This document shows positions 5,339 through 24,000 of a stretch of 24,000 bases of DNA, one piece after another. This stretch comes from Lysobacterales bacterium (GTDB taxonomy: Bacteria; Pseudomonadota; Gammaproteobacteria; Xanthomonadales; Ahniellaceae): assembly GCA_050173995.1 (NCBI GenBank), contig JBFXKH010000025.1, positions 5,349 to 29,348 on the forward strand, given 5' to 3'. Both the position numbers and the translations under genes were made by a program. The notes beneath the pieces were generated by a model. It saw only the letters and a list, made by a program, of their open reading frames with translations. It was not told the DNA's origin and made no database searches. Each line of letters begins with the position of its first letter. Within the stretch, counting starts at the first letter, position 1.

Positions 5339-5387
5339 CCATGCTCACCCGCCCGGCCGACCCCGCAGCGCCACCCGCGCCCCGCCG

Positions 5388-7636: not shown

Positions 7637-7650
7637 ACGCCACGGTCAGC

Positions 7651-8484: not shown

Positions 8485-8534
8485 GATGGGCCCTTCGCCA
8501 TGCTCAGGACAGGCAAAGCGCAGCGTGCCCATCG
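8481..8534. repeat. REP-like hairpin element (GTAGGATGGGC...GCCCATCG)
   Basis: The inverted arms are gatgggc (8485-8491) and gcccatc (8526-8532), around ...aagcgcagcg... A related motif (gtaggctggcggtaagcgcagcgaaccccagcatc) appears on the minus strand at ~21857-21891. Confidence 0.5.
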
Positions 8535-8719
8535 ACCGCCCAACCTCCACACCTCAAGCGAATCGCGAACCAGGGTGCGCTGCCGCCCGCTCGCATCGAA
8601 AGCACGCCCTGCCTGGTGAGTGAAAGCAGTTCAGCCCCAACCCGATCCTTATCGGGCGCAGTGAGGGTCGGCTGCGGGGTTTTATCCGCGATGCCGTGGC
8701 TTGCCAAGGAAAATTCGAC

Positions 8720-11700
8720 ATGTGGAAAATCGTGCGTGGTCTGTTGGGTCTGGGTCTTGCGTCTGCGCTTTGGGCAACGGCCAAGGCCGAACCCTGGTCG
8801 GTGCTGGCCGACCCCGACCCGCAGCCGGTGGCGACGTTCTCACCCACGGCGTTGTCCGAAATGCGTGCCGATGGTTATTGGGCATCGGGTTTCGCGCAGA
8901 ATCCGGCGGATGGATCGACCTCGGCAGCGGTCGGTCGTTTCGATGCGAACGGCAACTTGCAGCGTTGGTCCTTCGATGGCGGATTCTCAAAAAAACTTCT
9001 GGCCGATGGTGGCTTCGTCTACGCCAGCGTGCGCGAGACCGAAGGGCCGTCGACTGAATTTCCCCGAACGTTCTGCATGGTGGTTCGGGTAAGCGCGGAC
9101 GGTCGGACGCAGTGGCAGACGGTGCTCGACGGAAGATTTTGCCACGCAGTCGAAATCGACGCGGCTGGCGAGATATGGGTCGGCGTCAGCGACAACGTGA
9201 TCCCCGATCAGTCCAACTTCCTCAACATGGATAACATCACCGTCGCGCAGGTGGTGCGCCTGCACGATGACGGCCGTATCGCGGCGCGTATCGCGCTTGA
9301 TGTCCCGTCACAGCGCGTGGTCGAGATGCGCGCCGACCCGGCTGGTGCGGGCGTGTTTTTGGCCGTCCACCACGCCGAGCCCGGCAAGCCGCAGGCGGTG
9401 CGAATCGGCGTTCGGCGATTGCGTGCGGACGGCAGTGTCGATTGGCAGTGGCAATCGGGCAAGTTGGCGGCGGCGAGCGGCAATCATGCGTTGGCGAGCG
9501 GCATCACCCAATTCCGGGTATCGGCGAGCGCCGGCATCTTCGCCATCAGTAGCCGGTTTTCGTCGGACCCATCCATCGGCAACGCCAAGGACTGGCTGGC
9601 GGTGGGCTTGAGCCTGGCCGGCGTGCCGCGCTTCGACAAGACCATCAGCTTCGACAATGCCGTGTACGTTGCTGGGGTCAGCGCGCCGGACGCGGCCGGC
9701 CTGTGGCTGGTGGTGGCATGGGGTAACCGCAGCGACGGGGCGCAGGGCGGCAAGGTCGCCGTGGCACGGCTGTCTGGCGCCGGCAAGCTGGGTTCCAGCC
9801 ACCGGATCGATAACGCCCAGGACTGCATCTGCCAGTTGGCCCTGCGTCGGGACGGCGGCCTGTGGTTATCGGTCTTCGACCGAACCGCCATCCTCGTCGG
9901 TGTCGATGCCAAGGGCCGCGAGCACGCGCGGCTGGATGGCATCAGTCAAGGTCCGTTCGACCTGTTGTCCGACGACCGCGCCCTGGTCATCACCGGCGGC
10001 TCGCGATCGCAACCGATGCGGGCGGTGCGGGTCGGATTCGACCAGCCGAACGAGCCCTGGCCGCAGTTGACGCTGCCGGTGCGTCGGCGGTTGGTTTCGG
10101 TTGAAGCAGTAGCCAGCGACGGCGGGGTCGCGCAATGGGAAGAGCTGCCTTCGCCGGATGGCAACGCGATCACCTCGGCGTTGACCTTTCGCAGCAGCGA
10201 TACCGCCCCTGTCGCGTGGCGGATCGCGTTTCCGTTTTACGGCGACATCCGCCTGAGCGTTTCGCGCAGCATGCTGTGCCTGTCTGGCATGTTGCGTGAT
10301 AGCAACATCCGGGATTTTGTTCTGCAGTGTCGCCGCCGAGCTGATGGCAGCGTGCTCTGGCAAGATGTCCGACCACTGCAACCGGGCGAGTTCATAAACC
10401 GGTTCCTGGACGTCACCGCGCTGGACGATGGCGGTGCGGTGGCGATCCGTGGCGTGCTCGGCAGCGTGCAGCATTGGCTGATTGGCGATGATGGCCAGGT
10501 TCTGTCCGAACAAACGCTCCCCTTGCTTGGTTCCTCCCAGCAGGAACTGGAAATCACGCGTGCGAACATCAACACCCATGGCGATACCCTGCTCGCCAGT
10601 TTTGATAGTACAAAACGTGACGGCATCCTGCTGCGCCTGGATCGTGATGGCCAGGAACGCTTCCGGACGGCGTTCGAAGGTGTTTTCTTGACCTATGGCG
10701 ATATCACTCAGGATCGACTCGCTTTTGCGGACGATGCTGGCGCGATCATGTACGGCAGCGTGATCACACGCTATTCGGCGAATGGTGAGAAGCTTTGGGA
10801 ACTGGTGCCCGATCGACCGATCGTCGATCTGGTCGTGGATGGCGATACGATCGTGTACAGCATGCGTTCGGACGATCAATTTACCTTCGCGTTGGTACCG
10901 GGCAACTGGGAGCTGGTGGCCGTGGACAGCGCCAGCGGTGGCGAGCGCTGGCGCTTGCCGCTCGACGCTTCGTTCCGCCAGTCGGCCAGCATCGCAGCGT
11001 TGGCTGGGCGGCGCCTGGCGGTTTTGCAGACCGAGACCAGCCATCTGCGTTACCGCGAGTTGGATGTCGCCACCGGCACGCCGCTGCGCGAGCAGACCGA
11101 TGTCTGCGGCGGTGAATCGTGCGGTTGCGAAACCAATGCCTGCCGCCCGCGACCCCTTCGGCCGGGCGCGATTGCCCGGCCGACGCTGTCGCTGCAACCG
11201 GCCGCTTTAGGCCTGCGCGCCCGGCTCGATACGTTTCAGCTCGGGGCCGGCTGGGGATCGAGCGTTCTGGAACTGGCCGATGCCGGTCAGGATCCGGCCA
11301 CGGTGCGCGCCGATCAAGCGGGCATCAACGGCGCCTGGTTTGCGCCCTGGGCCAACGGCCAGGGGCTGGTGTTCGACTGGATCGCGGACGCTCGCATCCT
11401 GTTCGCCCCGTGGTTCACCTTTGCTCCGGAAGGCGGCAACGACCCGAGCGGGCTGCGCTGGTACACCCTGCAAGGCGAATTGGCCGATCCCAGTACGGGC
11501 GCGACGCTCGGCATCTTCAGCAATGAAAGCGGTCGCTTCGGCGTCGGCATCAGCGCGCCGCGGCAGGTGGGTTCGGCCGAGCTCAGCTTCGAGAGTTGCG
11601 AGCGCGCGCAATTTCGCTACCAATTCGACCCCGACGAAAACCACGGCTTGCGTGGCCTGGTCACCCTGTCGCGGCTGACGCCGGGCCTCGCCTGCAGCGA

Positions 11701-12169
11701 CGCGCCCGGCGCGCCCGGCGCGGCCGTGCCGGCCCCGCCCGCCACCGTACCGAACGCCCTCGACGCCAGTTTGGACGGCGCCTGGTTCGATCCGGCCAGC
11801 AGCGGCCAGGGCCTGACCTTCACCACCATCCCGGCCTCGAACCCGGCCGAAGGCATCCTGTTTGCCGCCTGGTTCACCTACGACACCGAAGCCGCCCCGG
11901 ACGACCCGCGCCAGCAACACTGGTTCACCCTGCAGGGCCCGCTCGGCAGCAGCGACCAGACCACCTTGGCCATCGTCCGCACCACCGGTGGCGCCCTGTT
12001 GACCCAGCCAACCAACAACAACCAACAGGTCGGCACCGCGACCGTCACCCGGCTCGGCTGCGATCGCCTGCGTCTGGATTACCAGTTTGATGACAACGAT
12101 CGGGCCGGACCGTACCGGCGTATCAGCGACTTCCGCGAATTGCAGCGCATCGGCGGTTGCGCCCACTGA
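8720..12169 (+). CDS. large secreted protein, beta-propeller-like repeats plus duplicated C-terminal domain, function unknown
   Basis: ATG at 8720 is preceded by AAGGA at 8706-8710. The signal peptide is MWKIVRGLLGLGLASALWATAKA. Recurrent G-x-x-(L/R)W / DG-x-x-x-W strand motifs resemble PQQ/BamB-type propellers. Two homologous ~130-aa C-terminal modules lie at ~11321-11690 and ~11771-12166. Confidence 0.8.
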   Translation: MWKIVRGLLGLGLASALWATAKAEPWSVLADPDPQPVATFSPTALSEMRADGYWASGFAQNPADGSTSAAVGRFDANGNLQRWSFDGGFSKKLLADGGFVYASVRETEGPSTEFPRTFCMVVRVSADGRTQWQTVLDGRFCHAVEIDAAGEIWVGVSDNVIPDQSNFLNMDNITVAQVVRLHDDGRIAARIALDVPSQRVVEMRADPAGAGVFLAVHHAEPGKPQAVRIGVRRLRADGSVDWQWQSGKLAAASGNHALASGITQFRVSASAGIFAISSRFSSDPSIGNAKDWLAVGLSLAGVPRFDKTISFDNAVYVAGVSAPDAAGLWLVVAWGNRSDGAQGGKVAVARLSGAGKLGSSHRIDNAQDCICQLALRRDGGLWLSVFDRTAILVGVDAKGREHARLDGISQGPFDLLSDDRALVITGGSRSQPMRAVRVGFDQPNEPWPQLTLPVRRRLVSVEAVASDGGVAQWEELPSPDGNAITSALTFRSSDTAPVAWRIAFPFYGDIRLSVSRSMLCLSGMLRDSNIRDFVLQCRRRADGSVLWQDVRPLQPGEFINRFLDVTALDDGGAVAIRGVLGSVQHWLIGDDGQVLSEQTLPLLGSSQQELEITRANINTHGDTLLASFDSTKRDGILLRLDRDGQERFRTAFEGVFLTYGDITQDRLAFADDAGAIMYGSVITRYSANGEKLWELVPDRPIVDLVVDGDTIVYSMRSDDQFTFALVPGNWELVAVDSASGGERWRLPLDASFRQSASIAALAGRRLAVLQTETSHLRYRELDVATGTPLREQTDVCGGESCGCETNACRPRPLRPGAIARPTLSLQPAALGLRARLDTFQLGAGWGSSVLELADAGQDPATVRADQAGINGAWFAPWANGQGLVFDWIADARILFAPWFTFAPEGGNDPSGLRWYTLQGELADPSTGATLGIFSNESGRFGVGISAPRQVGSAELSFESCERAQFRYQFDPDENHGLRGLVTLSRLTPGLACSDAPGAPGAAVPAPPATVPNALDASLDGAWFDPASSGQGLTFTTIPASNPAEGILFAAWFTYDTEAAPDDPRQQHWFTLQGPLGSSDQTTLAIVRTTGGALLTQPTNNNQQVGTATVTRLGCDRLRLDYQFDDNDRAGPYRRISDFRELQRIGGCAH

Positions 12170-12311
12170 TCGCGGCCGGCGCGGCGGCAACGGACACATT
12201 GCCAGTAGCCAAGCCAGATCGCCCACCCCGGCAGCGCCGAGCACCAGCTCGGCAACGCCGTCCACCGCCATCGCAACAGCGAAGCGCACCACCGCACCAC
12301 CGCATCACCAC

Positions 12312-12485
12312 CGACCCGACCATCACAGGCAATCGCAGCTCGATCGCCCGGACGCTTCCGCCGACCCAGCCACGGAAAGCGCGGTTCCGCAATCCATCGC
12401 TCCCCCCACACCCGGCACCCGACCCACAGCAACCCTCGAAAATCATGGCTGTCCCGGCTTGCGCCTGATCGAGCAGGCGCGGCGG
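12312..12485 (-). pseudogene. possible degenerate N-terminal relic of an integron integrase (very tentative)
   Basis: The minus-frame translation gives PPRLLDQ (12485-12465). It then gives LRNRAFRGWVGGSVRAIELRLPVMVGS (12392-12312). The second stretch aligns without internal gaps to the IntI1 segment [28 protein letters not shown] as I recall it, about 10 identities. Position and orientation, immediately left of the first cassette, are right for intI. Arg/Ala/Gly-rich chance matches are likely at this GC, and the spacing between the two pieces is wrong. Confidence 0.2.
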
Positions 12486-12698
12486 GTTCGCGCTCGCGGC
12501 ATGCTGACCATGGCGCGCATTGTTACCACCGATGCCGAGATCGGAATGCGTGTCAGTGAAACAACGCCAGCACACTTGCCAGTCGAATTCGAGGCGACTA
12601 ATCTGCCTGTGAAGGTACTGCGGTACGATGGTTTCATGCGCCTGCTTCCCGCCGAAAGACATTGCAAGGATAGGCTGCAAGGATCGGCGGCAACATCG

Positions 12699-12722
12699 GC
12701 GTAACACCATGATTCGTTTAGG
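12699..12722 (+). other. candidate attI-like simple site / first cassette junction
   Basis: The sequence is GCGTAAC-N10-GTTTAGG. The TTAGGA at 12717-12722 nearly matches the TTAGGC expected from the R'' box (GCCTAAC) of the first attC. The match is imperfect and not verifiable by eye. Confidence 0.2.
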
Positions 12723-12986
12723 AGTTTTCCTACAAGCAACGATCCTGGCGCTGTGATAGGCTGCGGGAACACATGGCGATTCGTCGCCGACTGGGTGGTT
12801 GGCAGCACAAACAACTAAACTCGCACTTGCCGAAACGCGGAAATCGCGTCTCTCAGAGGTGGCCTCCTGAGACTGATGATGGCGGGCTATACACATGCGG
12901 TATTTGGCCCCGCGGGTTTCCTGCTAGGGTTTGTAGTTACCGAGGTGATCGCTCTTCTATCTGAAATCACAAAGGAGGATATGCAC

Positions 12987-13187
12987 ATGGTCCAAAAGGC
13001 AGCCGTATCAAGTGGGAAGCAGCTATGGTCATGCGTCAAAAGTTCTACCAAGCGCCTCATCGCGTTTTGGGAGGCTCACCTTCCTTACAGGCAAAGCCTG
13101 CTGATGAGCTTGTGCAACTCAAGCGAAAAGGCCCTGAGATTGCTGCCTAACAATTCGTTCAAGGCGGACGCCTCCGGCGCCGCTTAA
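12987..13187 (+). CDS. hypothetical small protein (cassette 1)
   Basis: AAAGGAGG at 12971-12978 sits 8 nt before ATG 12987. The 66-aa product is MVQKAAVSSGKQLW.... The C-terminal codons (LPNNSFKADASGAA) are encoded by the attC itself. A longer in-frame start at 12876 would add a hydrophobic N-terminus but lacks an SD. Confidence 0.45.
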   Translation: MVQKAAVSSGKQLWSCVKSSTKRLIAFWEAHLPYRQSLLMSLCNSSEKALRLLPNNSFKADASGAA

Positions 13188-13201
13188 CTCAAACGTTAGG
13201 C
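13145..13201 (+). repeat. attC site 1 (57 bp)
   Basis: GCCTAAC aattcgttcaaggcggacgcctccggcgccgcttaactcaaac GTTAGGC. R'' (RYYYAAC) and R' (GTTRRRY) flank an imperfect internal palindrome. Closely resembles the aadA-type 59-base element as I recall it. Confidence 0.85.
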
Positions 13202-13216
13202 CACTATGGAGGCCAT

Positions 13217-13582
13217 GTGATCACCATAAAGACAGGAAGATTCGACGTCCTAGAAACCAAGACGCTACTTATTCCTGGCCTGGGCGAAACCAAGATTACG
13301 ATCAATCATGGCATTGAAGAAATTTCGTTCATCTTTGATTTTCGTATCGATGATAAATCGGAGCAGCAGCTCAACTATGAGTTGGTAGATGATCAACAGC
13401 TCCGCATAGTACTTATAAATTGGGGTGGCCCTTTCCCCACAACTCCTATTGAGCCGGTTCCAGTAGGAACAATTGGCAACAGAGAACTCTTTATTCTTTT
13501 TTCAGCTGCTAAGGCGGGAGACAAGGCGGAGATTCGCCAGCTAACCTTTACGGCCCTCCTGGGGGAGGTCGCAAATGGCTAA
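13217..13582 (+). CDS. hypothetical 121-aa soluble protein (cassette 2, gene 1)
   Basis: GTG at 13217 lies 4 nt after GGAGG (13208-13212). The sequence alternates hydrophobic and polar residues and looks beta-rich (ITIKTGRFDVLETKTLLIPGLGETKITINHG...LRIVLINWGG...). I recognise no family. Lower GC than the surrounding core DNA. Confidence 0.65.
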   Translation: MITIKTGRFDVLETKTLLIPGLGETKITINHGIEEISFIFDFRIDDKSEQQLNYELVDDQQLRIVLINWGGPFPTTPIEPVPVGTIGNRELFILFSAAKAGDKAEIRQLTFTALLGEVANG

Positions 13583-13841
13583 GTTGGTCGTACGTACGAG
13601 CGTTTCGGCTCCTACTGAAATCAACATCCCGTTGATCCGTGCGGATCATGCACACACCTCCCATGTATTCAGAACCTGCTTCGAAGTCTCTCTCTCTATC
13701 TTTTCAACTCTCCTAGGCTACGTGTTGGGCCTCTCAAGTACCATTCGCATCCATTGGGTGTTTCTCGGCGTATTTGCGCTTGCCACACTCGCATTTCTCG
13801 CTCTCTCTTACAGAGCTAGCAGCACTGCAAAAGTGGCCTAA
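13575..13841 (+). CDS. hypothetical 88-aa membrane protein, two predicted TM helices (cassette 2, gene 2)
   Basis: The ATG at 13575 overlaps the upstream stop (ATGGCTAA, 8-nt overlap). Hydrophobic stretches are FEVSLSIFSTLLGYVLGL and IHWVFLGVFALATLAFLAL. The stop TAA lies inside the R'' box of attC 2. Confidence 0.6.
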   Translation: MAKLVVRTSVSAPTEINIPLIRADHAHTSHVFRTCFEVSLSIFSTLLGYVLGLSSTIRIHWVFLGVFALATLAFLALSYRASSTAKVA

Positions 13842-13892
13842 CTATTCATTCAATCCGACGCCTTTGGCGCGGCTTAGCTCAAGACGTTAGCT
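13836..13892 (+). repeat. attC site 2 (57 bp)
   Basis: GCCTAAC tattcattcaatccgacgcctttggcgcggcttagctcaagac GTTAGCT. Its R'' GCCTAAC is complementary to the TTAGGC that starts this cassette at 13196. Confidence 0.85.
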
Positions 13893-13896
13893 GTCA

Positions 13897-14745
13897 ATGA
13901 GAGGTTCTCAGCACATGGATAAACAGCAGGCACTAGATCAGCTGGACAAGTTCAAACATCGTCTGGTCGCTGATGTGGCAGGTGCGTACGCGCAGCGTGG
14001 CTCTGACTTTGGGCGAGAGCGCTTTGCTGCTTGGCGACGCCAGATCGATAAGTTCCTAGACGAGAATCTTCCCGGCGCACGCGCAATGCTGGACAAAAAA
14101 TTGGACCACGGCGTCTTCTTTCGTGGCAGATCAGAGGGCGACTATGATGTATTCATGCGCGAGGATGGAGGGCCATCTTTGGCATTAATCGACTCTCTTT
14201 GTTTAGACATCAAGAATGACGAGTACGATTTTTCACGAGAAGTACCCCATCAGAACGCTGCTGAAACAAAAAAAGCAAGGAAATCTGCCCCAGAGAATTC
14301 AACTCGAGTATTCATTGTCCACGGTCATGATGAAACTTTAAAGACAAAGGCGGCGCGGTTTGTTGAAAAGTTAGGGTTAAAAGCGGTAATTCTTCATGAG
14401 CAGGCCAATCAGGGCCATACAATTATTGAGAAAATTGAGGCGCACACAGATGTAGGGTTCGCAATCGTTCTATACACACCAGATGATGCTGGTAGCACCC
14501 AGGCAGAAGCCAAAGCTGGAACACTGAAGCCAAGAGCAAGGCAAAACGTCGTTTTTGAACACGGCTACCTCATCGCCAAACTTTCACGGGCAAGAGTAGT
14601 TCCTCTGGTGGCAGCAAAATTAGAACTTCCAAGCGACATTAGCGGTGTCGTTTACGTGGACGACACGAACTGGCAAATAGATATTGCAAAGGAAATGAAA
14701 GCCGCTGGCTACAGTATTGACTTCAATAAGCTAGTTGACAGCTAA
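13897..14745 (+). CDS. TIR-like domain protein (CAP12/PycTIR-type, COG4271-like) with uncharacterised N-terminal helical domain
   Basis: The C-terminal ~140 aa read RVFIVHGHDETLKTKAARFVEKLGL..VILHEQANQGHTIIEKIE...GFAIVLYTPDD...ARQNVVFEHGYLIAKLSRARVVPLV...ELPSDISGVVYV. This matches the bacterial TIR-like family, including the conserved Glu (E221, codon 14557-14559). The N-terminal ~135 aa have no motif I recognise. An alternative start is ATG 13915. The stop TAA lies in the R'' of attC 3. Confidence 0.82.
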   Translation: MRGSQHMDKQQALDQLDKFKHRLVADVAGAYAQRGSDFGRERFAAWRRQIDKFLDENLPGARAMLDKKLDHGVFFRGRSEGDYDVFMREDGGPSLALIDSLCLDIKNDEYDFSREVPHQNAAETKKARKSAPENSTRVFIVHGHDETLKTKAARFVEKLGLKAVILHEQANQGHTIIEKIEAHTDVGFAIVLYTPDDAGSTQAEAKAGTLKPRARQNVVFEHGYLIAKLSRARVVPLVAAKLELPSDISGVVYVDDTNWQIDIAKEMKAAGYSIDFNKLVDS

Positions 14746-14799
14746 CAAGTCATTCAAGCCGACGCCGCTTCGCGGCGCGGCTTAATTCAGGCGTTAGGC
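14740..14799 (+). repeat. attC site 3 (60 bp)
   Basis: AGCTAAC aagtcattcaagccgacgccgcttcgcggcgcggcttaattcaggc GTTAGGC. Its R'' AGCTAAC is complementary to the TTAGCT that starts this cassette at 13887. Confidence 0.88.
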
Positions 14800-14815
14800 A
14801 ACAAGGTTAAATCTC

Positions 14816-15040
14816 ATGATCGACTTCTCAGCCGCAACGGCCCAGGAACTTGGCAAGCACAAGCAACACTTCCCATCTGGGAGTGACATAACAAAGCTCG
14901 CAAAGCTCGGGACACCCTCTTTTCAGCAGGCGCCCGAACCGACACGGTTGGAAGCCCAGCCCCCCCCACTCTTCCTATGCCCACAGGATGGGACGAATGG
15001 CCAGGTCAACGCAGTCCGCTGGTCGGCACGATCTGGTTGA
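14816..15040 (+). CDS. hypothetical 74-aa ORF (cassette 4, possibly truncated)
   Basis: The ORF follows attC 3 by 16 nt with a weak AAGG upstream. I recognise no family. It has no canonical attC of its own and runs straight into direct repeat A, so it may be a remnant. Confidence 0.25.
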   Translation: MIDFSAATAQELGKHKQHFPSGSDITKLAKLGTPSFQQAPEPTRLEAQPPPLFLCPQDGTNGQVNAVRWSARSG

Positions 15041-15221
15041 TGCGCTGATGGTCTGAACCGTTCGCCGGTTTGTCCTTTCCGTCATCTGACGCCACCGCGC
15101 CAGGCAAAAAGTGGACCGCCGACTGCCGTCCCTCCAACTGCCGTCCTCCGTCGATCCAAGGGCCGCGCTATGATTTTGGCTGCACGGCCGCTGCCTTGGG
15201 GATTCGTAGTTGTAGCGGCTT

Positions 15222-15282
15222 GGTTCGACCTTTCGCTCAAGCCGACGCCGCTTCACGGCACGGCCCACTTCAGGCGTTCGCC
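15222..15282 (+). repeat. degenerate attC-like element A
   Basis: ggttcgacctttcgctCAAGCCGACGCCGCTTCACGGCACGGCCCACTTCAGGC GTTCGCC. The central palindrome and a GTT-type R' box are conserved. The R'' position reads GGTTCGA, not RYYYAAC. Confidence 0.4.
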
Positions 15283-15288
15283 ACCACC

Positions 15289-15436
15289 ATGCAGGTCTCC
15301 GGCATCTGTCATTTCAATCTGCGAGCGCCGCGCGAGCTGCTCGATTCTCTGCGCGACTTCTACTGAGAGGTCGTTGGCCTTTCGGTCGGCGTTCGCCCGG
15401 CGTTCTCCAGCTTCGGCTACTCGGCAGCAAGGACGT
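15289..15436 (+). pseudogene. truncated duplicate of the VOC/glyoxalase gene
   Basis: MQVSGICHFNLRAPRELLDSLRDFY is followed by a stop at 15364-15366. Nucleotide homology to 16479-16636 continues past the stop with an ~11-nt deletion, then is lost at ~15437. Confidence 0.75.
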
Positions 15437-15519
15437 CGTCGTCGATGGCGAGTGTCGTGCGCATGATCGGCTCCTGATGGCGCACACCGTACTTCAGGCA
15501 TCGCGTCAACAAGCCAGGA

Positions 15520-15732
15520 TTATGCAGCGATGTCGATGTACTCAACTACACTGGCAGGCGCCGGAATCGGCATTCCGTCTTCACGCAACCCGGCGATGTG
15601 AAAGGCGATGGCCTCCCGGATATCGCGCTCTACGTCAGCCACCGTCGCGCCGGTTGCTATGCAGCCCGGAAGGTCGGGGACATAGGCGGAATAATTGCCC
15701 GGGGCTTGCTCAATCACTACGGCAAAACGCAT
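15520..15732 (-). CDS. hicB: HicB-family antitoxin (short, UPF0150-type)
   Basis: MRFAVVIEQAPGNYSAYVPDLPGCIATGATVADVERDIREAIAFHIAGLREDGMPIP is the canonical HicB N-terminal domain. It starts 5 nt downstream of the hicA stop codon. Confidence 0.85.
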   Translation of the reverse strand: MRFAVVIEQAPGNYSAYVPDLPGCIATGATVADVERDIREAIAFHIAGLREDGMPIPAPASVVEYIDIAA

Positions 15733-15737
15733 CGGGT

Positions 15738-15938
15738 CTACCTCTTCAGGCCAGCCTGCTTAAGGATGCTGTCGATTGTACCAGCGCCAAGGTCATCGCT
15801 GGGTTTTCCGGCAACCGTGACCCGGCCAGGCTTCGCAGGATGTTTGAACTGCCTATGGCTACCGCGAGTTGCCACCAAGACCCAGCCATCGTCCTTGAGG
15901 CGACGCAGAACTCCGCTGACTTTGGCGGTTGGCGGCAC
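15738..15938 (-). CDS. hicA: HicA-family mRNA interferase toxin
   Basis: VLRRLKDDGWVLVATRGSHRQFKHPAKPGRVTVAGKPSDDLGAGTIDSILKQAGL carries the HicA signature, including GSH-x-F-x-HP. The GTG start at 15938 lies 7 nt after GGGAGG. Confidence 0.85.
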   Translation of the reverse strand: MPPTAKVSGVLRRLKDDGWVLVATRGSHRQFKHPAKPGRVTVAGKPSDDLGAGTIDSILKQAGLKR

Positions 15939-16033
15939 CCAGGAACCTCCCTATCGAAAACCTATCGTCCGGCATCGCCTGCGGGCGAAAGCCGGTAAAG
16001 GCCGCAGTCGCTGGTCGGAGGCACGCAGTTGTT

Positions 16034-16225
16034 GGACGAAGCCGTTACGCGGAGGAAGCCTACTGCGGCACCTGTTCGGTCAGGATGATACATCGCCGCC
16101 ACGGTCGGTGGATCGCCAAAATCAGCGGCTGTGGTGATCGGTGGAACCCAGACGCGCTGGCGCTTGCTGCGCCAAGATACTGGCCCATGGAGTGCGTCGC
16201 TGCGCGCCGCTTGGTCTGAACCGAT
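16034..16225 (+). repeat. ~190-bp dispersed element, copy 1
   Basis: Aligns by eye at about 70-75% with 18957-19146 (ggacgaagccg.tacgcgga..aagcc..actgcggc.cctgt..gg..aggatgatac...). In both places it abuts the 5' side of a minus-strand toxin module. Confidence 0.55.
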
Positions 16226-16636
16226 CGCCGGCTCGACCCGATTCCACCGTTCCGGCCAAAACGTGGTTGTCCAACTGCCGTCTGTTGTCCGACTGCCGTC
16301 CTCCGACTGCCGACTGCCGTCCCGCCAACTGCCGTCCTCCATCGATCCAAGGGCCGCGGTATGATTTTGGCTGCACGGCCGCTGACTTGGGGTTTGGTAT
16401 TTTTCGCGGCTGGTTCGATCTTCCGTCCAAGCCGACACCGCTTCACGGCACGGTCCACTTCAGGCGTTTGCCACCACCATGCAGGTCTCCGGCATCTGTC
16501 ATTTCAATCTGCGCGCCCCGCGCGAGCTGCTCGATGCTTTGCGCGATTTCTACTGCGACATTGTTGGCCTTTCGGTTGGCGCTCGCCCGGCGTTCTCCAG
16601 CTTCGGCTACTGGCTCTACGCCGGCAGCAAGGATGT
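16201..16636 (+). repeat. direct repeat copy B (~436 bp)
   Basis: Partner of 15041-15436. It contains a longer heptamer run (16270-16345), attC-like element B, and the 5' end of the intact VOC gene. Confidence 0.8.
16412..16472 (+). repeat. degenerate attC-like element B
   Basis: ggttcgatcttccgtcCAAGCCGACACCGCTTCACGGCACGGTCCACTTCAGGC GTTTGCC, which ends 6 nt before the VOC ATG. Confidence 0.4.
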
Positions 16637-16889
16637 CCTTCATCTCACCGAGGCGCGGCCAGGCGAGCAGCGCTGCACGGGCCGTGCCGCAACTTTCGAT
16701 CATGTTGCGTTCGCCTGCACCGATGCTGCCGCCTACCGGGTCAGGCTGCAGGCAGCCGGCATCGCCTTCACCACCGATACCGTTCCAGGCACGGGCCAAC
16801 TGCAGATGTTCTTCACCGATCCCGCCGGCAATGGCGTCGAAATCAATTTCGCCGGGTCGGCTGACGCCTCCGTCAGAGCAACCGTGTAG
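16479..16889 (+). CDS. VOC family protein (glyoxalase/bleomycin-resistance/dioxygenase fold)
   Basis: 136 aa. ICHFNLRAPRELLDALRDFYCDIVGL...FDHVAFAC.D......RL...GI.F........G..QMFFTDPAGNGVEINF is the typical paired beta-alpha-beta-beta-beta VOC pattern. Confidence 0.85.
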   Translation: MQVSGICHFNLRAPRELLDALRDFYCDIVGLSVGARPAFSSFGYWLYAGSKDVLHLTEARPGEQRCTGRAATFDHVAFACTDAAAYRVRLQAAGIAFTTDTVPGTGQLQMFFTDPAGNGVEINFAGSADASVRATV

Positions 16890-17292
16890 GCGGGCGAGGC
16901 GCGTCGGGACGGGTCGGCTGCAACGGATGGCTGGCCGCCTGCCGCGCCAGCACGAAGCCCTCGCCGGATTCGGAATTCACTGGCAACAGCGCACGAGCCG
17001 CGAGCACTTGCGCGACAAGAATGTTTGGAATGGCGGCGCGGCCTTGCCGCCACGGCTTGGCAAGCGTGGGCGGGAGCCAGGTAACCTTTGGCGCAAGAGC
17101 GAGCTGATCGAGTTCAAGTGCAAGCGGTTGCTCGTCGGCGGAGAAGAACGCCGAAGCAACCTGCGCACTGTCGTCGGCAGCGTTGACGTGGACACAGTCA
17201 TCACGACGGTCAGCGGCGCAGCGCGGTAGCACCCCGGTTGCGAGTGCAACCTGCCAATCGGAAAGCGATGTAATGCGAAAAATCGAAGACAT
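16873..17292 (-). CDS. DUF952-like protein
   Basis: MSSIFRITSLSDWQVALATG....CVHVNAADDSAQVASAFF....PLALELD resembles the DUF952 pattern (I-x-H/R-I...W...G...FIH-S...Q......F). The 3' end overlaps the convergent VOC gene by 17 nt, and the C-terminal extension may be spurious. Confidence 0.5.
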   Translation of the reverse strand: MSSIFRITSLSDWQVALATGVLPRCAADRRDDCVHVNAADDSAQVASAFFSADEQPLALELDQLALAPKVTWLPPTLAKPWRQGRAAIPNILVAQVLAARALLPVNSESGEGFVLARQAASHPLQPTRPDAPRPPTRLL

Positions 17293-17304
17293 GGGATGCG
17301 CGGC

Positions 17305-18144
17305 CTAATGTCTAATCGCAGCGGTGGGTTTGCCAGAGCATCGTACTGCAAGCGCGCCGGTCTTCTGGACCTGCCCTGGTGGCCCACACCGGCCGTCGTC
17401 GAGGAATTGCGAGATCAGCGTGCCGATCCTGGACTGTAGCTCGGTGGGGCCATGGTCGTTCATGTCGTTATGACGGGCGCCGGCGATTGCCGTGATACAC
17501 GTGCCGGCATTCGCTTCCTGCGCTGTGGGTAGAACACCAGGGTCCGCCTCGAAGTCGCTGCCACGAATCGACAGGACTTTGATCGACCGGCTCCGGGGAA
17601 GCGGGTATCTGCGATGGTCGAGCGTGACCAGCGCCGTCGCAAGCGCAGGAGACCGATGTACGAAAAGGGCCGAAATGTCTCCCCCGTTCGAGTGGCCGAC
17701 CAGCGTTAACCGAGACCAGTCAAAGCCAGTGTGTGTACGGGACAGGGCGTCACGCACGAAGTGAAGATTCTCGACGCCACGATGCCACGCCGGCATGCGA
17801 CTGGCGAATAGGTCGCCGGACCTGCTTAGCGGGGCGTCGGTAGGCAGGTCGTGTTGAATGGCCACAACCAGGTAGCCAGATCGTGCCAGTGTGGCGGCGA
17901 CAAACGAGTAGTCAGTGTGGCGCAGGCCATAGCCAGGGCTTAGCAAAGCGACCGGGCATGGCCTGTCACGGATGCAGTCGTGCGGACGCGCCGGGAAATA
18001 AACTGCGATCGGAATGTGCCGGTCACGGCTTGCATCCCATAGCTCGGCCGACTCGGTAAGTCTTGAACCGCCCGCAGCTGTGGTTGCGCAGGCCACCAAA
18101 GCGACCAGCACCAGCAGTGTCGCAAATCTCATCAGTGCTTTCAT
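17305..18144 (-). CDS. alpha/beta hydrolase lipoprotein
   Basis: The signal peptide has a lipobox (LLVLVALVAC). The nucleophile elbow is LVGHSNGG, and a late ARHNDM supplies a probable catalytic His. 279 aa. Confidence 0.8.
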   Translation of the reverse strand: MKALMRFATLLVLVALVACATTAAGGSRLTESAELWDASRDRHIPIAVYFPARPHDCIRDRPCPVALLSPGYGLRHTDYSFVAATLARSGYLVVAIQHDLPTDAPLSRSGDLFASRMPAWHRGVENLHFVRDALSRTHTGFDWSRLTLVGHSNGGDISALFVHRSPALATALVTLDHRRYPLPRSRSIKVLSIRGSDFEADPGVLPTAQEANAGTCITAIAGARHNDMNDHGPTELQSRIGTLISQFLDDGRCGPPGQVQKTGALAVRCSGKPTAAIRH

Positions 18145-18171
18145 GGGGGCTGAGAGTTGAAGTTTTGTCGC

Positions 18172-18516
18172 TCAGGGCGACAACGCCAGCACCAGCCGCA
18201 GGCCTTCATCGACTTGTGACATGGCCTTGCCGGAGAGCGACCTGACTTTGGACGCGAGCAAAGCGCGATCCAAGGTGATGAGTTGCGAGACGTTGATTAC
18301 CGAGGCTCTCGGCAACCCCGATTCGGACCTGGCCAAACGCACATTGCCCGGTGCCGCTGCCAAGGCCAGGTTGGACGTGACGACAGCCACGATGACGGTC
18401 CCTATGCGACTTTCATTGAATGCCTGCGATTGCACAACCAGCACCGGACGTCGGAAGCCTGGATCGGAGCCGGTAGCTGCAGGCAGCGACGCCCACCACA
18501 ACTCACCACGCTTCAT
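18172..18516 (-). CDS. mazF: MazF/PemK-family toxin endoribonuclease
   Basis: MKRGELWWASLPAATGSDPGFRRPVLVVQSQAFNESRIGTVIVAVVTSNLALAAAPGNVRL....GLPRASVINVSQLITLDRALL is the canonical PemK/MazF pattern. ATG at 18516; the track's TTG at 18522 is less likely. Confidence 0.88.
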   Translation of the reverse strand: MKRGELWWASLPAATGSDPGFRRPVLVVQSQAFNESRIGTVIVAVVTSNLALAAAPGNVRLARSESGLPRASVINVSQLITLDRALLASKVRSLSGKAMSQVDEGLRLVLALSP

Positions 18517-18531
18517 CTGCAACCGAACTCG

Positions 18532-18870
18532 TCAGGCTGCATCTGCGGGCGTGCGCAAGAACCCCACTGCAATGGCAAAGACCACGGTCAACAGCAGTAC
18601 CTCGGCCAACCCGGCGCCAGCCACCAGCAGAAGCGTTCTCGCTTCCTCCTCCGCGACTATCGATAGTTTCGTCAGCTCCTCAATCCCAACCAAGATAAGA
18701 AACAGCAGAACGTATAGCAACACGGGGATGATCGAATAAAAGAAGAACAACCAAGCTGCCTTGAATCTGCGCATCACGCCGCTGCGCACTTGTCCGATCT
18801 GTCGCGCGAAGACGCCGACCGGCACCAGGATGATCGACCAGAATAGCAGCGACAGCAAATGCTCTCTCAT
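18532..18870 (-). CDS. hypothetical 112-aa membrane protein with three predicted TM helices, in the antitoxin position upstream of mazF
   Basis: ATG at 18870 lies 4 nt after AGGAGG. The hydrophobic segments are LLSLLFWSIILVPVGVFA, AAWLFFFYSIIPVLLYVLLFLILVGI and TLLLVAGAGLAEVLLLTVVFAIAVGFL. Its stop lies 15 nt before the mazF ATG. Local GC is lower than the flanks. Confidence 0.6.
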   Translation of the reverse strand: MREHLLSLLFWSIILVPVGVFARQIGQVRSGVMRRFKAAWLFFFYSIIPVLLYVLLFLILVGIEELTKLSIVAEEEARTLLLVAGAGLAEVLLLTVVFAIAVGFLRTPADAA

Positions 18871-18905
18871 CCGGCCTCCTGGGTACACCAAGTAGTGGCT
18901 TCGCA

Positions 18906-18958
18906 GCCCGACGCCTGAGCCAAGCCGCGAAGCGGCTGCGGCTTGAATGAACCGCTGG
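18906..18958 (-). repeat. attC-like element in reverse orientation
   Basis: The minus strand reads ccagcggTTCATTCAAGCCGCAGCCGCTTCGCGGCTTGGCTCAGGC GTCGGGC, which parallels attC 3 (..GTCATTCAAGCCGACGCCGCTTCGCGGCGCGGCTTAATTCAGGC GTTAGGC). The boxes are degenerate. Confidence 0.4.
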
Positions 18959-19146
18959 ACGAAGCCGCTACGCGGACAAAGCCCCACTGCGGCGCCTGTG
19001 CGGCGAGGATGATACCTCTCCCCCACGGCCGATGGCTGGCCAAGGCAACAACGGATGGGGCGATCGGCGGAACCCGGCTGCGCTGGCGTTGGCTGTGCCC
19101 AGGTGCGGACCTTTGGAGTGCGGCGCTACGCGCCGCTTTGGATGCT
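18957..19146 (+). repeat. ~190-bp dispersed element, copy 2
   Basis: Partner of 16034-16225. Its 3' part forms the left arm of the 19111-19204 palindrome. Confidence 0.55.
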
Positions 19147-19204
19147 CTACTGGCAGCGACTGACGCAAAGCATCCAAAGCGGCGCCGAGCGCCGCACGCC
19201 AAAA
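19111..19204. repeat. long imperfect palindrome (~36-bp arms, 22-nt loop)
   Basis: A perfect 17-bp core pairs GCGCCGCTTTGGATGCT (19130-19146) with AGCATCCAAAGCGGCGC (19169-19185). The arms extend through gtgcggcgct/agcgccgcac (19118-19127 / 19188-19197) and ctttgg/ccaaa, with small bulges. Confidence 0.8.
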
Positions 19205-19367
19205 TACCCGCCGGTGCCGATGGGCTCGAACACATCGGCACCGCGCTCGATGTGGGCCATTGCGGCGGTCTGGTCGCTGCATGTGCCATGCCCGACCAGG
19301 CCAGCTGTGGGCCTGTGTGAGTGCCCGCAGTGCCCCAATCAACGACCACACCACCAACCTACGGTCC

Positions 19368-19389
19368 GGATCGTGGCCGCGCACGATCC
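19368..19389 (-). terminator. candidate stem-loop downstream of the XRE gene
   Basis: GGATCGTG-gccgcg-CACGATCC lies 12 nt past the stop codon. There is no U-tract, so function is uncertain. Confidence 0.25.
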
Positions 19390-19400
19390 AAGCCTATTCG

Positions 19401-19655
19401 TCAGGCGGCTGAATCCAGTTGCCAGCCGGGAAAAGCAAGAACCGCCGGGTGGCAATGCAGCGCAGCGCCCAACACCTTGGCACGCTCTACGCCCAAATTG
19501 ACCCGACCCGTTTCGATGCTGGAGATGGTTGTTTGTGGGATGCCGCAAAGCGCGGACAGTTCATTCTGGCTGAGCCCCTGCAGTTCGCGAATGATGCGAA
19601 CGGACTCGCCAGGCGTAACGTCGACGCGCTTTTTGGCTGGAATTGGTTTGCTCAT
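19401..19655 (-). CDS. XRE-family helix-turn-helix protein (HigA-like antitoxin/regulator)
   Basis: ATG at 19655 lies 7 nt after GGAGG. IRELQGLSQNELSALCGIPQTTISSIETGRVNLGVERAKVLGAAL is a canonical XRE HTH. 84 aa. Confidence 0.8.
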   Translation of the reverse strand: MSKPIPAKKRVDVTPGESVRIIRELQGLSQNELSALCGIPQTTISSIETGRVNLGVERAKVLGAALHCHPAVLAFPGWQLDSAA

Positions 19656-19656
19656 T

Positions 19657-19842
19657 TCAGCGCCTCCGATAGTCATGAGCTGTGACACGCGCTACTTGAA
19701 CGACCATGACGCCAGCCTTGATCCGGAGGCTTGCGATGCTGCGATCAATGCGCTTGATTTGTCGAAGCGCTGATGAGCGCTGGACCCCCACATAGCGCGT
19801 CGCGTCGGTTTCCGGAAGACGCGCACCACTCTCGTCACCCAT
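19657..19842 (-). CDS. hypothetical 61-aa ORF translationally abutting the XRE gene (possible small toxin or decayed RelE/HigB-like gene)
   Basis: Its stop TGA ends 1 nt before the XRE ATG. The segment SSALRQIKRIDRSIASLRI loosely recalls the N-terminal A-x-K-x-L-K-K-L-D helix of RelE/ParE toxins. The ORF is too short for a full RelE fold. Confidence 0.3.
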   Translation of the reverse strand: MGDESGARLPETDATRYVGVQRSSALRQIKRIDRSIASLRIKAGVMVVQVARVTAHDYRRR

Positions 19843-19867
19843 GCCGACCTCGCGTTGTCTTTAGCTG

Positions 19868-20476
19868 TTACCGTTGTGCATACCGAGTGGCCAACGCGCA
19901 TAAATGTTTGCGTGTGCGCGCAAGACTCGGGGAACGTTGCGCCGCCCGAGTCGGGGACCACTGGGTACGAACCATCTCGCAAAGTCTGGCGTTATATCCC
20001 AGCCCCTGCGAGGCAATGGCGTTTCGTCGCACCACTAAATCTTCGCGTACTGCACGATGCGCCTTTTCCGCGATTCCCAACAATGTTCGTTTCGGGTCGC
20101 TCAGGCCATCGGGATTCTCGGGCAGGGAGCGGATACGCGTTCCCATCAGGGTGCGCAACCCCTCGTGATCGGCAATGATCCATGACTCGATTTCCCGCAC
20201 TGCCACCCTGAACACCAGTCCTGCTGGCTGCGCAATATCTTGCAGCCAATTGGCAATCAGTGTCGGCGCACATTTGGATTGGTCGAGATCGGTGATAAGG
20301 AACACGGGTTCATGCGCTGCCATCCGACAGAAGTTTCCGATGCGGCTCCGCAGGTACCCCGATCCACCTCGTCGAAGGCATTGGTGCGCGTGCAACCCCA
20401 CTTCAGCGGCGAGACAAAGCCCCACCTGCTCGCTGAGCTCATCTTCGGTTGCGAGCGTGATCCCACTCACTGCCAC
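19868..20476 (-). CDS. DUF4276-like protein (Toprim-like fold, putative nuclease partner of the ATPase)
   Basis: About 200 aa. The motifs ITLATEDELSEQV (acidic N-terminal strand), PVFLITDLDQSKCAPTL (DxD-like), FRVAVREIESWIIADHEGL and NPDGLSDPKRTLL match my recollection of DUF4276 proteins. The GTG start at 20476 or 20470 overlaps the ATPase stop by 10 or 4 nt. Confidence 0.65.
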   Translation of the reverse strand: MAVSGITLATEDELSEQVGLCLAAEVGLHAHQCLRRGGSGYLRSRIGNFCRMAAHEPVFLITDLDQSKCAPTLIANWLQDIAQPAGLVFRVAVREIESWIIADHEGLRTLMGTRIRSLPENPDGLSDPKRTLLGIAEKAHRAVREDLVVRRNAIASQGLGYNARLCEMVRTQWSPTRAAQRSPSLARTRKHLCALATRYAQR

Positions 20477-21630
20477 AGCCCCAGCTGCGCTGCCGCGCTG
20501 GGACGGGCCTTTGGAAGCACTACTTCGGCAACAGACAGCCCGCTCAGCAACGCGCTGCTTTCCCTTTCGTCAAGGACGCGCACAACAGTTCCCTCGGGCG
20601 CCGCCACCAGCAACAGGACGCCGCGTCCATCTATGCCCGGATTGCTCAGCAATGCCTCACTGTGCGTACTGATAAAAACCTGCCTCGAACGGCGTTTTTT
20701 ATCGCGCTGAATTCGTTGCAGCAGAAGTGGGATTTGGCGAACGATTGCATCATTCAGCGACAACTCGGGCTCTTCGAGGAGCAACAGAGAGTCCCCTTCG
20801 AGGAGCACCCACAACAATCCAAGGAGGCGCAAAGTTCCGTCCGAGAAGTGTTCCTCGCGCTGCCAGCCTGCGTTGGGCCGATGGTGTGCGTAACGGGCCT
20901 CCAAGTGTGGCCTTCCGCTAACTTTATCCGGTGTGAATCGAAGTTCTACGAATTGCGGGACGGCCAGTTTCAAGGCTTGCCCGATCTTCTTCAAGCGCGA
21001 CTCGCGCGCGCGATCCTGGGTCTTGGCAACACGCTCCAAGAAGCCTTGGCCGAACGGATCATCCTCGAGTAATTTTCCACCGAGCTGATCGGCGTACTTG
21101 AGTAACTGCGGGACTAGATGAAGATATGTTGCCTCGCCAAAAAATTCGGCAATTGCTCGAAACTTCGCGTTTGCCTGGATCTGCTCCAACGCGGTCTGTG
21201 TCAGCCGCATTGGATCCTTCTTGTCGGTCTTCGGGTTAGGCCGATCCAGCAGGAGCTTGCCACCGCGAAAGACTTGCTCAACGGAGATGAGAGTGCGCTG
21301 CGCGCCCTTTCCCTCAGGCTTGAATCCCAACACATATCGCCACGTCTCGGCCCCATCCTCAGCGCTGTCGGCAAGATCCACCTCGATCCGAACTTCGGGA
21401 TCTTTGCGCGCATGCAGGCAACGTAGTTTTTGGATTCCACCTCGATCATGGATCGCTTTTTGCAATCCACCACCATGCGGCTTGCAAACATCGCGCAGGA
21501 ATCGGAATACATCCAAAAAATTGGACTTGCCCGACGCATTTGCCCCAAGCAGGTACGTGCGCTCATGCAGCGGCACGTCCACGGCGCGAAAGTTGCGCCA
21601 GTTCTTGAGCTTGAGATGGGTCACTATCAT
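20467..21630 (-). CDS. ABC-type AAA ATPase (AAA_15/AAA_21-like, OLD/AriA/GajA/PtuA-type head)
   Basis: MIVTHLKLKNWRNFRAVDVPLHERTYLLGANASGKSNFLDVFRFL contains Walker A. FSDGTLRLLGLLWVL is signature-like, DSLLLLEEPELSLN is Walker B, and VFISTHSEALL is the H-loop. GGAG lies 10 nt upstream of the ATG at 21630. Confidence 0.85.
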   Translation of the reverse strand: MIVTHLKLKNWRNFRAVDVPLHERTYLLGANASGKSNFLDVFRFLRDVCKPHGGGLQKAIHDRGGIQKLRCLHARKDPEVRIEVDLADSAEDGAETWRYVLGFKPEGKGAQRTLISVEQVFRGGKLLLDRPNPKTDKKDPMRLTQTALEQIQANAKFRAIAEFFGEATYLHLVPQLLKYADQLGGKLLEDDPFGQGFLERVAKTQDRARESRLKKIGQALKLAVPQFVELRFTPDKVSGRPHLEARYAHHRPNAGWQREEHFSDGTLRLLGLLWVLLEGDSLLLLEEPELSLNDAIVRQIPLLLQRIQRDKKRRSRQVFISTHSEALLSNPGIDGRGVLLLVAAPEGTVVRVLDERESSALLSGLSVAEVVLPKARPSAAAQLGLWQ

Positions 21631-21772
21631 GATAAACGTCTCCGAGCGAGTGCTGCTCGCTCGCTATGGGCTGCTTTAGGTGTCCAAAATTACCGCCAAC
21701 CTGCAGACATTCATCCAGCACCGTAGCGCAACCGGAAGAACGGTTGCAATGCGACCCTGGCGGGCTGAACCA

Positions 21773-21794
21773 ATCCATCCATATGGAGTTGGAT
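21773..21794. promoter_or_regulatory. palindromic candidate operator upstream of the ATPase operon
   Basis: ATCCA TCCATATGGA gt TGGAT. The central 10-bp TCCATATGGA (21778-21787) is a perfect palindrome and lies ~145-165 nt upstream of the ATPase ATG in an otherwise GC-rich spacer. Confidence 0.2.
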
Positions 21795-21958
21795 CTGGGG
21801 ATTGTAGGCCCGATCGCCTTGCGTGCGCGAGCCTGGCGGCGGCACAGGCCAGCGCAGATGCTGGGGTTCGCTGCGCTTACCGCCAGCCTACGTTTATCCG
21901 GACGGTCGCAGGCCGAACCGGGCGGTGGCGAGGTGTGACAGCACGTTATCGGTGGCGG

Positions 21959-22012
21959 GTTCGGGATTGACCGGCTCCGCTGTCGAGAGCCACTGCGATT
22001 CGTCCGGGCTAC
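21959..22012 (-). repeat. REP-like element of the same family as 1332-1524
   Basis: The minus strand reads GTAGCCCGGACGAATCGCAGTGGCTCTCGACAGCGGAGCCGGTCAATCCCGAAC. Compare GTAGCCTGGATGGAGCGCAGCGGCTCTCAACAGCGCAGCTGGTCAATCC at 1332. Confidence 0.6.
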
Positions 22013-22047
22013 TTTTTGCACTACTTCCTAAGCTGATTTGCACGCCG

Positions 22048-24000
<1,953 letters not shown>

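Follow-up and report, generated by a model that had tools for sequence, protein, structure and literature searches.

Is the GC-poor middle of the 24,000-nucleotide stretch analysed here (the window: positions 5,349 to 29,348 of contig JBFXKH010000025.1, from a Lysobacterales bacterium) an integron cassette array that has no integrase of its own, and what do its cassettes carry? A first-pass annotation, made from the letters alone, had proposed a cassette array with canonical attC recombination sites and no intact integrase. Our analysis bears this proposal out, through the scores of an attC covariance model, the near-identity of the sites to attCs of class 1 integrons, the complementarity of the boxes that open and close the cassettes, and the lack of any intI within the 37.6 kb searched. 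We consider it very probable that the region is a chromosomal cassette array without an adjacent integrase, i.e. a cluster of attC sites lacking integron integrase (CALIN), with attCs of the Xanthomonadales type. Its first cassette holds a small open reading frame (ORF) set between two predicted hammerhead ribozymes, and the fate of the RNA between them forms the second subject of this report. Positions are those of the window throughout, and the features are collected in Table 1.

A pattern scan found exactly three attC-shaped elements on the plus strand of the window. The earlier claim that three elements of 57-60 bp carry exact RYYYAAC and GTTRRRY boxes holds for their number, but not for every box: the R'' boxes read GCCTAAC in attC1 and attC2 and AGCTAAC, one base off the consensus, in attC3, and the R' boxes read GTTAGGC in attC1 and attC3 and GTTAGCT, again one base off, in attC2. 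A covariance model had been recommended as a check, and all three sites are detected by a home-made one, R1, which was built from four class 1 integron attCs of plasmid pINCan01 (NC_019286.1; the qacL, orf cassette, qacE-type and aac(6')-Ib sites) with a hand-drawn R''/L''/L'/R' structure; the window sequence was excluded from the training set, a 110-nt GES-1 attC was dropped from it as misaligned, and the scan was run with filters off. On 1.45 Mb from 80 other gammaproteobacterial purF loci, R1 was positive in only two, L013 and L060, and its matches in both are obvious cassette arrays, so the model is specific. Rfam, in which no attC-type family fired on these sites, gave only the hammerheads and spurious miRNA matches. 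At least 5000 plasmid records hold aadA5/qacL-type attCs to which attC3 is 93-94% identical over ~70 nt. Its alignment with the pINCan01 qacL attC is continuous base by base, in the layout R''-spacer-L''-loop-L'-spacer-R'; the single unpaired C and A on its top strand are the extrahelical G and T of the recombining bottom strand. Alignment and DNA folds show the attC architecture (R''/R' and L''/L' pairing, unpaired bases on the bottom strand) in these sites, with extra mismatches in attC2. The likeness to aadA-type and Xanthomonas-type sites, proposed in the first-pass annotation, agrees with the plasmid matches and with the report that aadA1/2/6/7 and qac cassettes carry 'Xanthomonadales-like' attCs, 99.4% of such attCs being in Xanthomonadales chromosomes (Ghaly et al. 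2021, PMC8352920); by this attC type the array is therefore typical of its host group.

The ends of the cassettes tell the same story. IntI would act on the attC of a circular cassette in its folded bottom-strand form and recombine it with an attI or attC; since the cut falls at G|TT within GTTRRRY, each cassette is expected to open with the complement of its own closing box. As first described, the opening TTAGGC of cassette 2 (13196) is the exact reverse complement of GCCTAA at 13836, and the opening TTAGCT of cassette 3 (13887) is that of AGCTAA at 14740; cassette 1 opens with TT-GGC, a 1-nt deletion relative to its closing GCCTAA. The placing of ORF stop codons inside R'' boxes is right for two of the three (TAA at 13839-13841 and at 14743-14745), but the first ORF stops at 13185-13187, within attC1 but in its 3' arm. 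All long ORFs from 12.9 to 14.8 kb read on the plus strand, in the direction of the array, and the GC content is 0.47-0.54 at 12501-15000 against 0.59-0.71 at 8501-12500 and 0.56-0.66 at 17001-24000, both as the first-pass annotation had it; at 15001-17000 the value is already 0.60-0.66. Could the 57-60-mers nevertheless be generic repetitive extragenic palindromes or terminators, and not integron recombination sites? They are indeed imperfect palindromes at gene ends, and the fold of attC2, taken alone, is no better than that of shuffled sequence (z = -1.1). However, such repeats would explain neither the 93-94% identity to class 1 attCs that are in experimental use nor the conserved AAC/GTT triplets and the complementary opening and closing boxes, and no further copies occur in ~38 kb of the contig or in 78 of the 80 related loci. 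We give this reading hardly any credence.

The search for an integrase covered the window plus ~4 kb to its left and ~10 kb to its right (37.6 kb in total). Here tblastn with IntI1 gave nothing better than E 0.44, and the Pfam hits of the called genes held no Phage_integrase domain, in agreement with the earlier remark that the window has no tyrosine recombinase. Nor was an intI remnant found by IntI1 tblastn, by Pfam on the minus-strand ORFs of 12123-12896, or by blastn and tblastx of 12170-12900 against all loci. With no IntI in the 37.6 kb and three attCs on one strand, the region is a CALIN by the definition of IntegronFinder (Cury et al. 2016, PMC4889954), under which at least two same-strand sites lie less than 4 kb apart; the spacing here is 691 bp from attC1 to attC2 and 904 bp from attC2 to attC3. 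It shares with CALINs the promoterless, same-direction cassettes and the lack of an intI nearby, and differs in nothing essential, both its ends being eroded and one relic lying inverted 2 kb away. On the stretch searched it is not a complete integron, which has an intI gene with the IntI-specific domain, an attI next to it and a Pc promoter. Several points weigh against the assignment. The integrase search took in 37.6 kb of a 137-kb contig from a draft assembly; no attI or Pc promoter was identified; a promoter scan of 12000-17400 gave no sigma-70-like promoter, so that the cassettes would presumably be expressed by read-through. R1 has four training attCs, three of the same aadA/qac type, and partly measures sequence similarity. 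Finally, the genome scan with purF returned only distant relatives (73% identity or less), too far off for cassette gain and loss to be followed between strains.

From the sequence we infer past integrase activity and present inactivity of the array: the cassettes would have been added one by one through an IntI integrase, and the array would now be frozen and decaying with no integrase nearby. The three central attCs keep every sequence feature needed for recombination, and cassettes 2 and 3 could still be cut out by an integrase provided in trans. It can also be hypothesized that the array never had an integrase of its own at this place and that its cassettes were inserted in trans at a non-att chromosomal site, which is an experimentally shown route to CALINs (Loot et al., bioRxiv 10.1101/2022.09.11.507474). 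We regard this origin as rather unlikely. In its favor, the stretch from the upstream 1157-aa gene to the first attC relic shows no trace of an intI pseudogene, and the distant relative L013 has an attC array directly after purF-DUF455 with no integrase within 10 kb; but the eroded relics on both sides and the inverted relic 2 kb to the right imply long rearrangement, which could equally have removed an intI, 530 bp at 12170-12700 are of unclear origin, and the data are compatible with both integrase loss and trans insertion.

The array has close counterparts among known integrons. It shares the aadA/qac-like attC type and a Lysobacterales-related host with the sedentary integrons of Xanthomonadales, a group in which intI loss and array decay are common (Gillings 2005; PMC8352920; Colombi 2025, bioRxiv 10.1101/2025.06.18.660453). 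The integron of Xanthomonas lies downstream of ilvD and usually has a degraded but recognisable intI, whereas the array in the window lies downstream of cvpA-purF-DUF455 and the 1157-aa gene and has no detectable intI remnant. Compared with the class 1 cassettes of pINCan01 that have aadA/qacL-type attCs, attC3 is a handful of positions off the qacL site, with R and L boxes and unpaired bases alike; in contrast to them, the window array is chromosomal and has neither intI1, attI1 and Pc nor resistance genes.

Both ends of the array are eroded. The decay of the right end had been recognised at first sight, and we find attC relics there at 15228-15277 (R1 27.9 bits) and ~16412-16473 (78% identical to attC3). 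A block of ~390 bp is present twice, at 15049-15437 and 16212-16637, with two main gapless segments (107 and 201 nt) that are each 91% identical, and its first copy carries a truncated glyoxalase gene. Within the duplicated block, upstream of the glyoxalase gene, tandem-like repeats of ~18 nt (TCCAACTGCCGTCCTCCG and variants, 5 copies) stand at 16270-16341 and 15133-15150. The first-pass description of the array was incomplete at its left edge, where it overlooked the erosion (12699-12722 and 12745-12803) and both hammerheads. A called 81-aa ORF (12459-12704) has its stop codon inside the GCGTAAC box of the first of these, a possible half-site. The second, attC0, keeps its central hairpin (GGCGATTCGTCGCC) and an R' relic, GTTGGC (12798-12803), with the remainder barely recognisable, and it aligns with an intact attC and cassette start (GTTAGGC GGCAC...CTAAACTTGCACTTGCCGAAAC) upstream of the same module in the metagenome contigs L086 and L093. 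The inverted relic to the right of the array suggests an inversion or a second, lost array. One further likeness, TCGGCGTAAC, common to the end of the 81-aa ORF and the end of the ORF after purF in L013, had no wider similarity around it and was taken as chance.

Cassette 1 carries a type II hammerhead at the start of its ORF and a type III hammerhead inside the 3' part. Conservation and covariation of both were followed in relatives of the module that lie in other cassette arrays, in genomic islands and on viral contigs. In the type II members the core is intact, stem I and stem III are both closed and stem II is open, and nearly every member inspected has one additional U, placed between A9 and G10.1 (L168 differs). 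Over 15 sequences, 92.7% of cells are paired against 36-54% in slid controls, and 6 pairs have changed on both sides. In the type III members stems I and II are closed and stem III is open, and variation within the core is confined to the free position N7 and to H17 (A, U or C); the corresponding figures over 17 sequences are 93.1% against 28-48%, with 7 pairs changed on both sides, and none of 500 shuffles reaches the observed pairing value. Stem II and the core of type III were fixed by the search pattern and are therefore uninformative. RNAalifold, unprompted, recovered all three stems of type III and stem III of type II. The Rfam scores are less favorable to both ribozymes. RF02276 matches 12828-12891 with 36.4 bits (E 3.7e-4), 0.6 bits under its gathering score of 37, the homologous copies having 34.5, 39.9 and 49.7 bits; RF00008 matches 13088-13127 with 24.8 bits, the L084 copy has 35.1 bits, and no type III copy reaches the gathering score of 48.5, stem III being short (4-7 bp). 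Self-cleavage at the sites given below is a prediction.

The small ORF between and within the ribozymes belongs to a family of its own. It has 15 homologues, a profile search gives 82 cluster representatives, and no Pfam, PADLOC or NCBIfam family was matched. Nucleotide conservation begins exactly at the first ribozyme and ends exactly at the end of the second, with unrelated flanks on either side. The module is bounded by attCs in the window and in unrelated metagenome contigs (L084/L162, L086-L089, L093, L119, L192 and probably L097); elsewhere it lies in a tRNA-adjacent island (L100) and in AT-rich genomes (L123, L152, L172). Members were added by a metagenome scan with the type III pattern, and a scan of viral contigs gave further ones from IMG/VR. 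Of the 76 metagenome matches to the type III stem II/core pattern (loci L098-L173), about 60 were set aside for their different stem I (e.g. ...TAACCCY before CUGAUGA); these are presumably other hammerhead families with the same stem II hairpin. In a phage subfamily (L127, L130, L154, L178, L186, L187 and L191) the type III ribozyme is kept, a promoter-like sequence replaces type II, a terminator follows the ribozyme, and the 5' GGCGGCGGCU pairs with AGCCGCCGC beside the cut site. In L090 (509-2122) the module lies directly downstream of a 537-aa reverse transcriptase (RVT_1), which may belong to one of those group II introns that are known for their insertion at attC sites.

Coding and ribozyme sequence are interleaved in this module. 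The type II hammerhead overlaps the start codon of the ORF (CUGAUGAUGG) in the window and in the homologues, the start lying in and next to the CUGAUGA core, and the near-invariant residues "LLMS...SEK" correspond to CUGCUGAUGAGC...AGCGAAAAG, i.e. to the type III core. The annotated first AUG has no strong Shine-Dalgarno sequence, and every member inspected has a Shine-Dalgarno-like purine tract and an AUG in the middle of the ORF. In the window this tract is AAGGAGG (12972-12978), which is invariant in 8 aligned close members and only purine-rich and Shine-Dalgarno-like in distant ones; the ATG at 12987 is invariant in an alignment of 16 proteins. Variability by codon position is 0.387/0.19/0.567 upstream of the internal Shine-Dalgarno, a clear coding signature, and 0.264/0.28/0.354 downstream of it, a weak signature that is RNA-constrained inside the type III ribozyme. 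Judged by these patterns, the module is both coding sequence and RNA. The ORF of many members stops at a UGA within the loop of type III stem II; in the subgroup of the window UGC replaces this UGA, so the ORF continues into attC1.

If both ribozymes act as predicted, read-through transcripts from upstream would be cut after C12850 and after A13087, and the cuts would release an RNA of 237 nt (12851-13087) whose two ends would pair together. RNAalifold pairs the nucleotides immediately 3' of the first cut with those immediately 5' of the second in a long helix. In each of 18 members, the 45 nt at one end pair with the 45 nt at the other in a duplex with an energy of -23 to -50 kcal/mol (z = -2.3 to -8.2 relative to shuffled sequence), which is stronger than that of the 5' end with any internal window; the overhangs are of ~5+5 nt and the ends are paired in the minimum-energy fold. 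This helix was assessed by duplex energies of the single sequences, with shuffled and internal-window controls, and column covariation was dropped because the pairing register shifts between subfamilies. The 5' strand of the helix shares sequence with stem I and with the type II core, and the two folds are therefore alternatives. Paired ends of this kind would suggest a closed or circular RNA. In addition, 17 of the 18 members have an excised length divisible by 3 and, when joined into a circle, a frame free of stops, L152 (256 nt, with homopolymer runs) being the one that breaks the pattern; given the fixed leader of 25 nt from the type II cut to the AUG and the in-frame indels, the stop-free frame counts as one observation with a chance of ~0.2-0.3, and is not strong evidence.

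Two interpretations of this arrangement have to be weighed. On the simpler one, to which we give an even chance, the two hammerheads only trim the transcript, insulating the RNA of the small gene from upstream read-through, from the attC hairpin and from the downstream cassettes, and the protein is made from molecules that type III has yet to cut. Hammerhead pairs around single small ORFs are known from prophages, where they are read as processing of polycistronic RNA; circular products were sought there and not seen (Perreault et al. 2011, PMC3088659), and in a later review the part that hammerheads play in prokaryotes is termed an open question (de la Pena 2017, PMC6155905). Trimming also sits well with the many members that have their own UGA inside the type III loop and so a normal linear ORF, and chance alone would give a length divisible by 3 in about one of 3-5 cases, the 25-nt leader being fixed. 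On the other hand, the type III cut would remove the stop codon and leave a non-stop mRNA, the first AUG lacks a strong Shine-Dalgarno while every inspected member has a purine-rich, Shine-Dalgarno-like tract and an AUG in mid-ORF, and simple trimming needs no end-joining helix such as is conserved, with its short overhangs, in all 18 members. The bolder interpretation, which we think improbable, makes cassette 1 a natural, ribozyme-made coding RNA that is circular or can be covalently closed: the excised 237 nt would be joined at their ends by an RtcB-type ligase and the circle translated. Such a circle would hold neither ribozyme complete and so would escape re-cleavage, and it would contain a Shine-Dalgarno, an AUG and a stop-free frame of 79 codons.

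Engineered circular-RNA expression by the 'Tornado' system uses flanking ribozymes and a terminal stem, with ligation by RtcB. We take the geometry of cassette 1 to be alike, in the order ribozyme, stem strand, insert, stem strand, ribozyme; it differs in being a natural element with hammerheads instead of twister ribozymes, and ligation here is only hypothesised. With the hammerhead pairs of prophages and other bacteria (PMC3088659, PMC6155905) cassette 1 shares a type II and a type III ribozyme that bracket one small ORF of unassigned function, and related copies in viral contigs and genomic islands. It differs from them in four respects: the ORF is conserved (across the 82 cluster representatives), the ribozymes extend over the start codon and over the 3' end of the coding sequence, the RNA bounded by the two cuts has paired termini that covary, and the unit moves as an attC-bounded integron cassette. 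None of these four was reported in the literature searched. The full texts searched, whose coverage is incomplete, so that this is absence of evidence only, describe neither integron cassettes with hammerheads nor bacterial circular RNA that derives from hammerheads.

Table 1. Features of the cassette array and its surroundings, in window coordinates.
Feature	Position	Strand	Basis and remarks
Possible attC 5'-half relic	12699-12722	+	GCGTAAC...ATTCGTTTAGG; read from sequence; weak, R1 gives no detection
Eroded attC (attC0)	12745-12803	+	Left boundary of cassette 1; alignment with L086 and L093; R1 gives no detection
Cassette 1, small-ORF module between two predicted hammerheads	12799-13195	+	Same module attC-flanked on both sides in L084, L086-L089, L093 and L192
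Type II hammerhead	12826-12891	+	CUGAUGA/GAAA core, GUC cleavage triplet; predicted cut after C12850
103-aa ORF	12876-13187	+	Hydrophobic N-terminal segment, internal Shine-Dalgarno, then ATG 12987; C-terminal tail is translated attC1
Type III hammerhead	13083-13131	+	Inside 3' part of ORF; predicted cut after A13087
attC1 (57 nt)	13145-13201	+	R1 58.5 bits, E 6e-14; bottom-strand fold pairs R''/R'
Cassette 2	13196-13886	+	DUF6864 protein (13217-13582; Pfam PF21732, E 1.8e-17) and overlapping 88-aa ORF (13575-13841)
attC2 (57 nt)	13836-13892	+	R1 39.8 bits, E 1e-8; most degenerate of the three intact sites
Cassette 3	13887-14793	+	282-aa protein with CAP12/Pycsar-type TIR domain (13897-14745); Pfam PF10137, E 7e-37
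attC3 (60 nt)	14740-14799	+	R1 72.9 bits, E 7e-18; near-identical to qacL/aadA-type attC; bottom-strand fold z = -3.75
Eroded distal array	14794-16890	+	Repeat families D1-D3, R1, Pfam
HicB	15520-15732	-	Pfam
HicA	15738-15938	-	Pfam
Intact 136-aa glyoxalase/VOC gene	16479-16889	+	Pfam Glyoxalase
Isolated attC relic, opposite orientation	18906-18960	-	R1 26.5 bits, E 5e-5; upstream of 112-aa membrane-protein gene and mazF

Of the remaining cargo, the protein of cassette 3 matches PADLOC PDC-S35 (PDLC05005) over its full length (residues 7-279, E 6e-80), which makes this cassette a candidate single-gene anti-phage system. To the right of the array, and all on the minus strand, lie genes for a DUF952 protein, an alpha/beta hydrolase, MazF, an HTH protein, a DUF4276/AAA_21 pair and acetyl-CoA synthetase. 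The AAA_21 ATPase (387 aa) and the DUF4276 protein (19868-21630) match the PADLOC candidate pair HEC-01A/HEC-01B (E 2e-150 and 1e-45) and are adjoined by the HTH gene, so the array borders on a small defence island.

To the left, the gene order is cvpA (5388-5894), purF (6152-7636), DUF455 (7525-8484) and a gene for a 1157-aa protein (8696-12169), signal-peptide-like and with a weak PQQ_2 match, after which the array region begins. The first-pass annotation had taken this last gene for a core gene, and here it cannot be followed: no relative was found in the species-representative genome collection, among the 80 syntenic cvpA-purF(-DUF455) loci there is no homologue of this gene or of whatever lies to the right of it, and synteny with the related loci ends directly after DUF455, at 8484, not at 12.2 kb. 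Between this gene and the array, some 300 bp (12170-12460) are apparently non-coding and rich in C and A (GC skew -0.21, AT skew +0.28), with no resemblance to anything in the related loci. The purF of the window is at most 73% identical to those of Arenimonas, Rhodanobacter, Dyella (71-73% for these three), Luteibacter and other Lysobacterales, and the host is therefore a poorly sampled relative of Lysobacterales. Two distant gammaproteobacteria, L013 (12744-14720; an uncultured metagenome-assembled genome) and L060 (14477-15977; one of Cycloclasticus), likewise carry attC arrays, which follow purF within 2-5 kb, have the same orientation and are without an integrase within 10 kb; together with the window these may mark a recurrent insertion region or be a coincidence.

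Taken as a whole, the array is an ordinary, partly decayed CALIN of the Xanthomonadales attC type. It adds a further data point for Xanthomonadales-like chromosomal arrays as the reservoir of the aadA/qac-type attCs of clinical class 1 integrons, and it is consistent with the idea of such arrays as carriers of toxin-antitoxin and anti-phage genes. The family of cassette 1 is conserved and easy to clone, and it bears on the open role of bacterial hammerheads by offering testable models, in which the cassette transcript is insulated, a small membrane protein is controlled or a circular RNA is formed. With its predicted cleavage, cassette 1 would mean that integrons can mobilise self-cleaving RNAs. 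Were the circular interpretation true, integrons, genomic islands and phages would be spreading a circular mRNA of bacteria that is encoded in DNA.

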